DNA of 64,000 nt from Escherichia coli (lineage in GTDB: Bacteria > Pseudomonadota > Gammaproteobacteria > Enterobacterales > Enterobacteriaceae), in NCBI RefSeq assembly GCF_013315695.1, contig NZ_CP054353.1; one strand, 5' to 3'. The notes under the pieces are model-generated. The model was not told where the DNA came from. It did not search any database and worked only from the letters and a program-made list of their open reading frames with translations. Numbering within the stretch: position 1 is the first letter of the stretch; the number at the start of each line of letters is the position of its first letter. A program made the position numbers and the translations under genes. Positions 5,641-36,534 of this stretch are shown piece by piece.

Positions 5641-7392
<1,752 letters not shown>

Positions 7393-14172: not shown

Positions 14173-14520
14173 TTATTCTACGCTGTTGGTATCGGTGCGT
14201 TTGTTAATCATCTGGTTAACCAGCCACAAAAAGCCATTGAGAAAGTTATTGATTCTACATGGAATTATTATATTTCTAATCCCTGGTTTTTAAAAGTTGT
14301 GCATAGTGAAAATCAAAGTAAAGGTGTGCATTATGCAAAATCACAGCGTCTCTTAGAAATTAACCATACGCACTTGCAGTTAATGGAATCCTTATTGGAT
14401 GAAGGGAAGAAACACAATATTTTTAAGCCAGATAGCGACCCATTGCAGGTGAATATTAATATTGCTGCGCTTGGGGGATATTATTTGATCAACCAGCATA
14501 CGCTTGGCCTGGTTTATCTG
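14173..14520 (+). pseudogene. ytfA: ytfA remnant: C-terminal fragment of a TetR-family regulator, no HTH domain, 3' end abutted by the IS
   Basis: Frame opens after TAA at 14170-14172 and reads ...[22 protein letters not shown]...[24 protein letters not shown] (ligand-domain-like), then runs into the IS left end. Track ORF 14299..14790 is a chimera of this frame and IS sequence. Confidence 0.5.
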
Positions 14521-14574
14521 GTGCGCCGTAAAACCCCGTCCTTCAGGGCGGGGATATACGGCGCGGTTTTCCAC

Positions 14575-15006
14575 CTAACCAGGTGTTTGCTGTTGTTCAA
14601 TGTATTGACGGATGGCGGATATTGGCGCACCTCCGCAGCTACTGGCAAAATAGCCAGGACTCCACAAAACGCCTTTGTAGTAATACCTGACTGCAATATC
14701 TGGTCGATCTCGTCGCAGTCACCTACCCGATACGCCTTTGAGGCTGTTTACCAGACTGGATATCGCCAGTTTGGGAGGATAGTTAATTAACAAATGGACG
14801 TGATCTGGTTCGCCATCCATTTCAACCAGTTCAGCTTCAAAATCAGCACATACATTTGAAAAGTAAGTGCGTAGTTTTTCTGTCGCGTCATAGTCAAAAA
14901 TCTGACGTCGGTATCTGGTGACAAAGACCAGGTGAACATGCATCAGGAAAACACAATGCCTTCCCCGTCGGATATCGGTTTCTTTATTCACAGACCAAAG
15001 TATCAT
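14575..15006 (-). pseudogene. tnpA: IS200-type TnpA (HUH/Y1 transposase) inactivated by an in-frame TGA
   Basis: ATG 15006: MILWSVNKETDIRRGRHCVFLMHVHLVFVTRYRRQ...[31 protein letters not shown](14719-14721)[50 protein letters not shown]. HxH motif is upstream of the stop; the conserved SPGYFA...GGAP C-terminus lies after it. Confidence 0.8.
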
Positions 15007-15013
15007 TTGGCCT

Positions 15014-16222
15014 GTGAAACGACTACAGGCATTTAAATTCCAGTTAAGACCCGGTGGTCAACAGGAGCGTGAAATGAGGCGCTTCGCAGGCGCATGCCGT
15101 TTCGTTTTCAATCGTGCTCTGGCGCTTCAGAATGAGAATCATGAGGCCGGTAATAAATACATCCCTTACGGGAAAATGGCTTCCTGGCTGGTTGAGTGGA
15201 AAAACGCCACTGAAATGCAATGGCTTAAAGATTCGCCCTCACAGCCATTGCAACAGTCACTGAAAGACCTTGAGCGGGCTTACAAAAACTTCTTCCAGAA
15301 GCGGGCTGCTTTTCCCCGATTCAAAAAGCGGGGACAGAATGATGCATTCCGCTACCCGCAGGGCGTTAAGCTCGATCAGGAAAACAGCCGTATTTTTCTG
15401 CCGAAACTTGGCTGGATGCGCTACCGGAACAGCCGTCAGGTCACGGGTGTTGTGAAAAATGTCACTGTCAGCCAGTCCTGCGGTAAGTGGTACATCAGTA
15501 TTCAGACAGAAAGTGAAGTATCCACTCCGGTTCACCCTTCAGCATCAATGGTCGGGCTGGATGCTGGCGTGGCTAAACTCGCCACGCTGTCAGATGGCAC
15601 AGTCTTTGAGCCTGTAAACAGTTTTCAGAAAAACCAGAAGACGCTGGCGAGACTTCAGCGACAGTTAAGCCGCAAGGTCGAATTCAGCAATAACTGGCAG
15701 AAGCAGAAACGCAAAATACAGCGACTGCATTCCCGTATCGCAAATATCCGCAGGGACTACCTTCACAAAGTCACAACGACCGTCAGCAAAAACCACGCAA
15801 TGATAGTCATTGAGGATTTGAAGGTCAGCAACATGTCAAAGTCAGCAGCGGGTACGGTCAGCCAGCCGGGGCGCAATGTCCGGGCAAAATCAGGTTTAAA
15901 CCGTTCGATACTGGATCAGGGCTGGTATGAAATGCGCCGCCAGCTTGAGTACAAGCAGCTCTGGCGTGGCGGTCAGGTGCTTGCTGTTCCGCCAGCGTAC
16001 ACAAGCCAGCGTTGCGCGTGCTGTGGTCATACAGCGAAAGAAAATCGCCTGTCACAAAGTAAATTCAGATGCCAGGCATGTGGATATACAGCGAACGCTG
16101 ATGTAAATGGCGCTCGTAACATTTTAGCGGCGGGGCACGCCGTTCTTGCCTGTGGAGAGATGGTGCAGTCAGGCCGCTCGTTGAAGCAGGAACCCACCGA
16201 AATGATTCAGGCGACAGCCTGA
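15014..16222 (+). CDS. tnpB: TnpB (IS605 OrfB family; RuvC-like RNA-guided nuclease family), apparently intact
   Basis: 402 aa from GTG 15014; N-terminal [12 protein letters not shown]...RFVFNRAL; RuvC-I GLDAGV, RuvC-II VIEDL, zinc finger CACCGH...CQACGY, Ruv[13 protein letters not shown]. Confidence 0.85.
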
Positions 16223-16290
16223 ACGAAGCAGGGATCCACGTCCTTCAGGGCGTGGAGGATGTCAACATATCAGTATGGTTTCCCCCCAGG
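16080..16290 (+). ncRNA. Candidate TnpB right-end guide RNA (omega/reRNA) spanning the tnpB 3' end and right-end hairpin
   Basis: Inferred from family architecture only; right-end hairpin at 16238-16257 is visible; no promoter or processing site identified. Confidence 0.3.
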
Positions 16291-16356
16291 CACTGGAAGC
16301 CAGACGTAAGGTCATCAAAGAGACGCTCCTTAGCTGGCTTTTGGTTGATCCTTCAT

Positions 16357-16995
16357 CTACCGCGCACGAATAAAACTGCCATCCGGCTGGCGGGTAAACA
16401 GGACCTGTTGATTATTCCCCGTATCAATGGTTAAGCCCGTCACCACGCCGCTGGCGTTCTGGCGGATTTTCACCATCTGCCCATTTTGCAAATTACTCAG
16501 CGGCTTACCCGCGCCTTCTACCTGCGCCATTGCATAGACATCGGTAGCGGGCAGTCCGTGGTCGCGGAACAGCTGCGCCATCGTTTTACCGGGTTCGACA
16601 CGGTAAGAGCGCCATTGATTATCAATTCCGCTATCTGGCTGGAATGGTTGCGTTTGGGTAGTTTGCGGCTGTTCTTCTGGCTGGCCTTCCTGTATAGGTT
16701 CTGGAGCGACCGGAGCCACCTGATCAGGATCATTTTGTGGTGTGACTAATTGCGCCCGCAGCTGTTCTTCTGTCGGCGGTTGTGATTGCGACTGAATATC
16801 TAACTGCGCTTCACGCGTCACCACCGGCGCGTTGGGCGTATCATCAGATGGAAGCAGAAATCCGACCACCAATACAATGGCGGCAATAATGATCCCCCGA
16901 CGATGCATCGGCGGCAGCGGGTCCATGAAGCGAAAATTGTCCGGCGCGTGCCAGACTTTCTCCAGGGTTGGTTTTAGTTCAAAGCGCCCGGGCAT
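16357..16995 (-). CDS. ytfB: YtfB, OapA/LysM-domain cell-division protein
   Basis: 212 aa from internal Met ([46 protein letters not shown]...), single TM, Pro/Gln-rich linker. Confidence 0.85.
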
Positions 16996-21441: not shown

Positions 21442-22303
21442 CTACTTATTAACATTAAAAAGATTGCTTACGCTTTCGGCTAACGTTGTCGTTGGGCGGC
21501 CAATCAATTTGCTCAGCGTTTTGCTGTCATCAAACAGACCGCCTTTCGATGCGCCAACGTCAGAATCCGCCAGCATATCCGCCAGTCCGTCAGGCAGTCC
21601 GACGCTTTTCAGTGCCGCGGCGAAATCAGCCTCACTCAGATTTTGATAGGTAACCTGTTTGCCGCTCTGTTTGGTCAGCTCTGCCGCTAACTGTGTCAAC
21701 GTCCAGGCACTATCGCCCGCCAGTTCGTAAACCTTGCCTTCGTGACCGGCTTCGCTAATCACGCGTGCCGCAGCTGCCGCATAATCTGCCCGCGTTGCTG
21801 AGGCGATTTTGCCATCGCCCGCCGCACCGATAAATACGCCGTGTTCCAGTGCTGCCGGGGCGCTGGCGAGGTAGTTTTCGCTGTACCAGCCGTTGCGCAG
21901 CAGGGTGTAAACGATGCCAGAATCAGCCAGCATTTTCTCCGTCTCGATGTGCTCATCGGCGAGGCCGAGCGGAGATTTATCCGCGTGAAGCAGACTGGTA
22001 TAAGCGATAAATTTCACACCAGCCGCCTTTGCGGCATTAATAACATTACGATGCTGCGGGGCACGTTGACCCACTTCGCTGGAAGAGATCAGCAGTAGTT
22101 TTTCCACTCCCTGAAGTGCAGATGTCAGTGCGGCTTCATCGCCGTAGTCAGCCTGACGCACGGTAATGCCTTGTGCTGTCAGTGCCTGGGCTTTTGCCGG
22201 ATTACGAACGATAGCCACTATTTGGCTGGCAGGAACCGTTTTCATCAAAGGATTCAATAACATAGTGTCCAAGTTGGCCAGTGGCACCAGTAATTGCGAT
22301 CAT
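21442..22303 (-). pseudogene. qorB: qorB (ytfG) NAD(P)H:quinone oxidoreductase with a +1 frameshift near the 5' end
   Basis: ATG 22303 reads MIAITGATGQLGHYVIESFDENGSCQPNSGYRS-stop; the rest (MKTVPASQIVAIVRNPAKAQ...VNK) is in another frame. ATG-to-stop span is 862 nt, one more than a multiple of three; shift lies in the T-run at + strand 22246-22251. Confidence 0.7.
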
Positions 22304-22391
22304 AGGAAGTCTCCATCGTTTTGTCTTGTGTTTAAATACGCTAACACCTAAACTTACTTTTAGTAAGTACGTACAAAAAGGTAAGTATGAG

Positions 22392-29755: not shown

Positions 29756-29799
29756 AACAAAACGCACTTTATCAACAATCTACATTTGTACCCTTAACG

Positions 29800-36504: not shown

Positions 36505-36534
36505 AGCACGCCACCTTCGGGTGGCGTTGTTTTA
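36505..36534 (+). terminator. Rho-independent terminator of tamAB-ytfP
   Basis: acgccaccttcgggtggcgt hairpin followed by tgtttta. Confidence 0.75.

Follow-up and report, generated by a model that had tools for sequence, protein, structure and literature searches.

The Escherichia coli K-12 protein QorB (YtfG, also called QOR2) is an NADPH-dependent quinone oxidoreductase with NmrA and NAD_binding_10 domains. In proteins with a Rossmann fold, strand β1 and the glycine-rich loop form the core of the sheet, and the loop is the dinucleotide-binding element. Natural inactivation of the gene has been described in Salmonella Pullorum, where qorB carries an AA-deletion frameshift (PMC10745331), and a paper citing Kim et al. 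contains the statement that QorB overexpression slows growth (PMC12879462). The locus studied here resembles the other natural qorB null alleles in being truncated early, with a short N-terminal peptide and an orphaned downstream open reading frame (ORF) left over, but differs from them in the position and type of the lesion.

The locus lies in a 64-kb stretch of E. coli DNA (hereafter the window), in the gene order cpdB - ytfH <> qorB - ytfF - ytfE with ytfH divergent, an arrangement collinear with that annotated in the complete genomes of CFSAN051542 and EcPF7. The original prediction had named the gene qorB (ytfG) and described a +1 frameshift in it; the identification is upheld by the match to PDB 2ZCU ('oxidoreductase ytfG') and by synteny. 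After repair of the frameshift, the protein aligns over residues 1-285 with 2ZCU_A, the solved YtfG/QOR2 (PDB 2ZCU/2ZCV), with E = 1.8e-176, differing from the K-12 protein within those residues by four substitutions (A42T, T109K, H269R and H279N), and it has the NmrA and NAD_binding_10 domains in common with it (PF05368, 86.8 bits with a cut-off of 27; PF13460, 77.3 bits with a cut-off of 27.2). The best E. coli matches to the nucleotide sequence are all annotated as qorB, each being one base shorter. Unlike K-12 qorB, the window gene has no uninterrupted frame of 286 codons that includes the GxxGxxG motif: the frame breaks after codon 18, and the motif can no longer be made in one chain with the remaining domain (Table 1). 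The locus is thus filed as a pseudogene of the QorB/YtfG family (NmrA-like atypical SDR), not as a functional member.

Table 1. The qorB locus of the window and the reading frames left by the insertion (positions are those of the window)
Feature	Position	Strand	Remarks
qorB (ytfG) pseudogene, native ATG to native stop	21442..22303	minus	862 nt = 3 x 287 + 1
Lesion, TTT on the gene strand (AAA on the plus strand), wild type TT	22247..22249	minus	+1 insertion after codon 18
Residual N-terminal ORF, 33 codons + TAA	22202..22303	minus	18 native residues, then 15 out-of-frame (FDENGSCQPNSGYRS)
GATGQLG, the GxxGxxG dinucleotide-binding motif, codons 6-12	22268..22288	minus	left behind in the 33-aa peptide
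Downstream ORF in the native frame, 273 aa from alternative-frame ATG 22263	21442..22263	minus	MLLNPL followed by native M20 onwards
GGAG ribosome-binding site, intact	22311..22314	minus	7 nt upstream of the native ATG

At the lesion, the wild-type codons TCC TTG ATG have become TCC TTT GAT G, with the change falling in codon 19. Alignment to the two closest complete genomes, CFSAN051542 and EcPF7, places the extra base in the very run where it had been suspected, since both carry AA/TT there, and it is the sole difference in the gene stretch; the same TTT was seen in 12 public loci. The span from ATG to stop given in the original prediction is correct, and so is the expectation that one base fewer would repair the gene: deleting one T in silico gives a single 286-codon frame, with a product identical to that of qorB in CFSAN051542 (locus L001). 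The N-terminal ORF had been put at 37 codons, which has to be corrected to 33. From the ATG at 22303-22301 it reads MIAITGATGQLGHYVIESFDENGSCQPNSGYRS, of which MIAITGATGQLGHYVIES is native, and it stops at the TAA at 22204-22202. The remainder of QorB does lie in the adjacent frame, running as 267 aa from native M20 (ATG 22245-22243, beginning MKTVPASQ) to the stop at 21444-21442, and the glycine motif is indeed split from residues 20-286. This downstream ORF, which carries the rest of the NmrA-like domain, reaches upstream as far as a GTG at 22287 (281 aa, 21442..22287). Wild-type relatives have an identical promoter region, ribosome-binding site and start codon; inspection of the sequence found no evident Shine-Dalgarno sequence at either ATG 22263 or the M20 ATG.

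The explanation that we consider very probable is that a recent and genuine insertion of a single T (TT to TTT in codon 19) made qorB a pseudogene in the window lineage. Because the ribosome-binding site and the start codon are intact, ribosomes would be expected to make the 33-aa peptide, in which 15 nonsense residues come after strand β1 and the GATGQLG loop, and then to stop. As both internal ATGs lack a Shine-Dalgarno sequence, little or no translation of residues 20-286 would be expected, and any product begun at these ATGs would have a Rossmann fold without strand β1 or the GxxGxxG loop and would not bind NADPH. In profile terms, positions 1-20 of NAD_binding_10 are missing from the downstream product and NmrA is matched only from position 28, the fragment scoring 63 and 64 bits with matches that start at profile positions 28 (NmrA) and 21 (NAD_binding_10). 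The NADPH:quinone reductase activity of the soluble QOR2 is predicted to be lost because the downstream product lacks both β1 and the loop. The loss would be tolerated because the gene appears dispensable, other inactivating alleles being frequent in public data.

The insertion can be called recent in the window lineage because the downstream frame is free of secondary damage, the repaired protein being identical to that of wild-type relatives; for this lineage, the case for non-function would accordingly come from structural reasoning and not from observed decay. Decay is seen in other carriers of the same insertion: in one (L007), W199* is accompanied by five unusual missense changes, another (L015) has G12S in the glycine motif, and a third (L013) combines G12S with A7V and S18F. 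This argues against rescue by recoding or by a functional restart.

The original prediction had allowed for a homopolymer sequencing error, in which case the strain would have TT and the extra base would be a miscall in the window assembly. We regard this as very unlikely. Although the insertion does fall in a homopolymer, the run is very short, and one that goes from 2 to 3 nt is a poor site for a miscall, the adjacent A4 and A3 runs being unaffected. Nor does the assembly bear an error-prone signature: across the 64-kb window, the qorB insertion is the one indel relative to the nearest complete genome, EcPF7, the other differences being about 19 SNPs and a shifted register of the 18-bp repeat in yjgL. 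With this catalogue of indels against two close genomes, a noisy assembly was ruled out. Comparison with CFSAN051542 adds two more homopolymer differences, both intergenic, with the window allele also found in EcPF7. At 5714, between ulaG and ulaA, the window has T7 and CFSAN051542 T6; at 29762, next to msrA, it has A4 where CFSAN051542 has A5, A4 being present in two other genomes besides EcPF7. Because these alleles are common to EcPF7 and others, the two differences are true polymorphisms and not errors.

Independent sequencing of the window lineage reproduces the lesion. Logan assemblies of three runs are 100% identical to the window, TTT included, over 6.1 kb (ERR8574652; L004, a contig present in 3 samples), 3.5 kb (SRR15832845; L009) and 3.2 kb (ERR13983368; L010), and the genes neighbouring qorB, where wholly inside these contigs, are full length. 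These three runs and the decay of two further carrier lineages both speak against an error, and no general excess of homopolymer indels is found in the assembly. Some public carriers do look unreliable: the 33-aa peptide STF95977.1 is on a 5.3-Mb single contig that may be a long-read assembly, and L014 (GCA_009741525.1, VOFH01003454.1) has several split neighbour genes. L014 and L022-L024, qorB-frameshift carriers in which the neighbours cpdB, ytfH and ytfF are also split, are probably error-prone data, and assemblies of this type were discounted when independent origins were counted.

For a survey of complete genomes we used a 78-nt probe limited to invariant sequence, which matches 5,406 of the 5,426 complete RefSeq E. 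coli genomes; it replaced an earlier 83-nt probe that crossed the polymorphic site 22268, as a result of which carriers on other backgrounds were inseparable from wild type. None of the 5,406 matching complete genomes matched the frameshifted probe exactly, and among the matches listed all span 77 nt. The TTT allele is thus rare but real, and inherited within a lineage.

As improbable as a sequencing error, in our estimation, is that the allele is not null and that QorB, begun at ATG 22263 (273 aa) or at M20 (267 aa) and so shortened at its N-terminus, keeps some activity or an NmrA-like role other than an enzymatic one. Such a product is formally possible, in that the insertion rids the alternative frame of its TGA TGA stops and opens a long ORF from an upstream ATG, and it is annotated both by gene callers (273 aa) and by NCBI (267 aa). 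The downstream frame is intact in the window lineage, and some NmrA-family proteins are known to be regulators, not enzymes. However, the product would be without β1 and the glycine-rich loop, both ATGs lack a Shine-Dalgarno sequence, and in L007 the nonsense codon at W199 and several unusual missense changes indicate that selection does not act on the downstream frame in that lineage. Preservation of a restart also fails to explain why this allele is the commoner one: an AA50 to AAA insertion gives an equivalent 273-aa restart ORF, yet is found on a single contig. Selection for the restart ORF as the force behind the allele frequency was rejected on the same ground.

To programmed recoding, in which a +1 shift near UCC UUU GAU would restore full QorB, or in which the run would be a reversible phase-variation switch, we give next to no credence: C CUU UGA U resembles the prfB site CUU UGA C superficially and in the wrong frame, which is nothing positive, whereas programmed frameshifts are conserved and the frameshifted arrangement occurs in 0 of 5,406 matching complete genomes, the site has no in-frame stop, rare codon, slippery heptamer or upstream SD-like stimulator, the other TTT carriers are decaying, and a run that grows from 2 nt in wild type to 3 nt in the window falls far short of the tract lengths of transcriptional slippage or of phase-variable contingency loci, which are long homopolymers or short tandem repeats of typically 7 units or more. 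Both variants were ruled out on motif and conservation grounds.

With a genuine frameshift as the preferred reading, its distribution in public data was considered. At least six qorB haplotypes, with 15-46 differences between them in 861 nt (2-5% diverged), carry the identical insertion, which has arisen on, or been transferred onto, this minimum of six backgrounds. For three of the carrier loci (L005, L008 and L006), there are complete wild-type genomes that are identical over 6.1, 3.6 and 4.2 kb, respectively, except for that one base, and two of the insertion-bearing backgrounds (L007; L013/L015) have decayed further. The products expected from 20 alternative +1 insertions within the same ~60 nt, the A4 and A3 runs among the sites, were looked up as a baseline: 17 were absent and 3 occurred on a single contig. 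At this background rate, the rough Poisson probability that a single site would see five or more events is ~1e-6 to 5e-6, a post hoc figure that assumes independent backgrounds. On this basis, we tentatively suggest, at slightly less than even chance, that codon 19 of qorB (TCC-TT-G) is a site-specific hotspot for +1 insertion that run length does not explain. The cause of such a hotspot would be hairpin-assisted or otherwise templated insertion. The alternatives are that short-patch recombination, leaving no visible trace, has moved one older allele inside a 78-nt stretch that is invariant in all backgrounds, or that the pattern reflects chance together with clonal sampling.

No convincing mutational mechanism emerged from searches for templates, inverted repeats and hairpins. 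Within 1.5 kb on either side, no copy of the mutated sequence of at least 7 nt was present on either strand except an 8-mer 1,131 nt away in cpdB, and elsewhere in the window there was no match with 3 or fewer mismatches. The repeat search reported no inverted repeat at the lesion site. An imperfect one, GAA-T-CC-TT(T)...AAA-C-GG-TTC, is lengthened by one T-A pair by the extra T, as quasi-palindrome correction predicts, and the minimum free energy of the hairpin changes from -3.4 to -4.2 kcal/mol; it is weak and bulged, with z = -0.10 against shuffled sequences. A templated origin of the extra T was therefore not favoured, there being no nearby template and the sole hairpin being no more stable than shuffled sequence. 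Compared with described systems, qorB shares with quasi-palindrome-templated hotspots the recurrence of the same 1-nt insertion and the gain of one pair in an inverted repeat, but its hairpin is weak. It differs from Streisinger slippage in runs in that the wild-type run is only 2 nt and the adjacent A4 run shows no insertions. Should the hotspot be confirmed, codon 19 would serve as a natural test sequence for non-canonical insertion mechanisms, meaning those that do not depend on run length. The recurrence of one insertion at a dinucleotide is otherwise a minor curiosity that opens no major question.

The insertion is not the only way in which the gene has been lost, as qorB is inactivated repeatedly in E. 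coli and by several routes. One is Q39*, which results from CCAGG to CTAGG at a Dcm site and is found on 60 contigs, which represent two or more haplotype backgrounds (loci L016-L021), with a 38-aa product (P0024). An amber codon at a Dcm site is a classical hotspot of 5-methylcytosine deamination; this allele has a textbook mechanism, whereas the TT to TTT insertion is without an obvious one. In the window, the CCAGG Dcm site at codon 39 is intact (~22191-22183; codons 38-40, GCC CAG GCA). Public data also contain truncations of qorB at IS junctions and a CCC to CC -1 frameshift allele (P0031). The latter was discarded as a comparator hotspot, its contigs being short and its neighbour genes broken, which probably marks noisy data. 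Literature searches on qorB/ytfG mutations returned nothing on the TT to TTT allele.

The TTT allele has nevertheless already been deposited, mis-annotated as two proteins. The exact 33-aa peptide is on record as STF95977.1 (UniRef A0A376MDD9; 13 contigs), the 273-aa downstream product occurs on 9 contigs, and the 267-aa form that begins at native M20 is in NCBI as WP_088538092.1 and HAH6023896.1, 'NAD(P)H:quinone oxidoreductase'. These three accessions, STF95977.1 being called an 'uncharacterised protein', carry no flag as pseudogene fragments. The locus is an ordinary frameshift pseudogene of a well-characterised gene, and its annotation should read as a frameshifted qorB pseudogene, in place of a 267- or 273-aa "quinone oxidoreductase" and a 33-aa hypothetical protein. 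It adds one more case to the repeated losses of this dispensable redox enzyme in E. coli.

Some other features of the region were noted in passing. Beside ytfP, CFSAN051542 has a P2-like prophage (tail sheath, tube, tape measure and ogr; L001 1-5800) and a hok/gef gene, which are absent from the window and from EcPF7, and the collinear alignment of the window with CFSAN051542 ends at about window position 36525. Inside yjgL, at 63767-63998, lies an 18-bp tandem repeat of 12.9 copies with the consensus TTAAATAATTCACAGGAG. A 100% alignment with EcPF7 requires a register shift of 18 nt here, so that the window and EcPF7 probably differ in the copy number or in the unit order of this repeat. At ~14200-16400, a pseudogene of the TetR/AcrR family is interrupted by an IS200/IS605-type element that contains tnpA and a gene for the RNA-guided endonuclease TnpB/InsQ. 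Of the approximately 19 SNPs that separate the window from EcPF7, 11 fall inside tnpB (cluster at 15430-15905), a pattern that points to conversion between IS copies or to a different variant of the IS.
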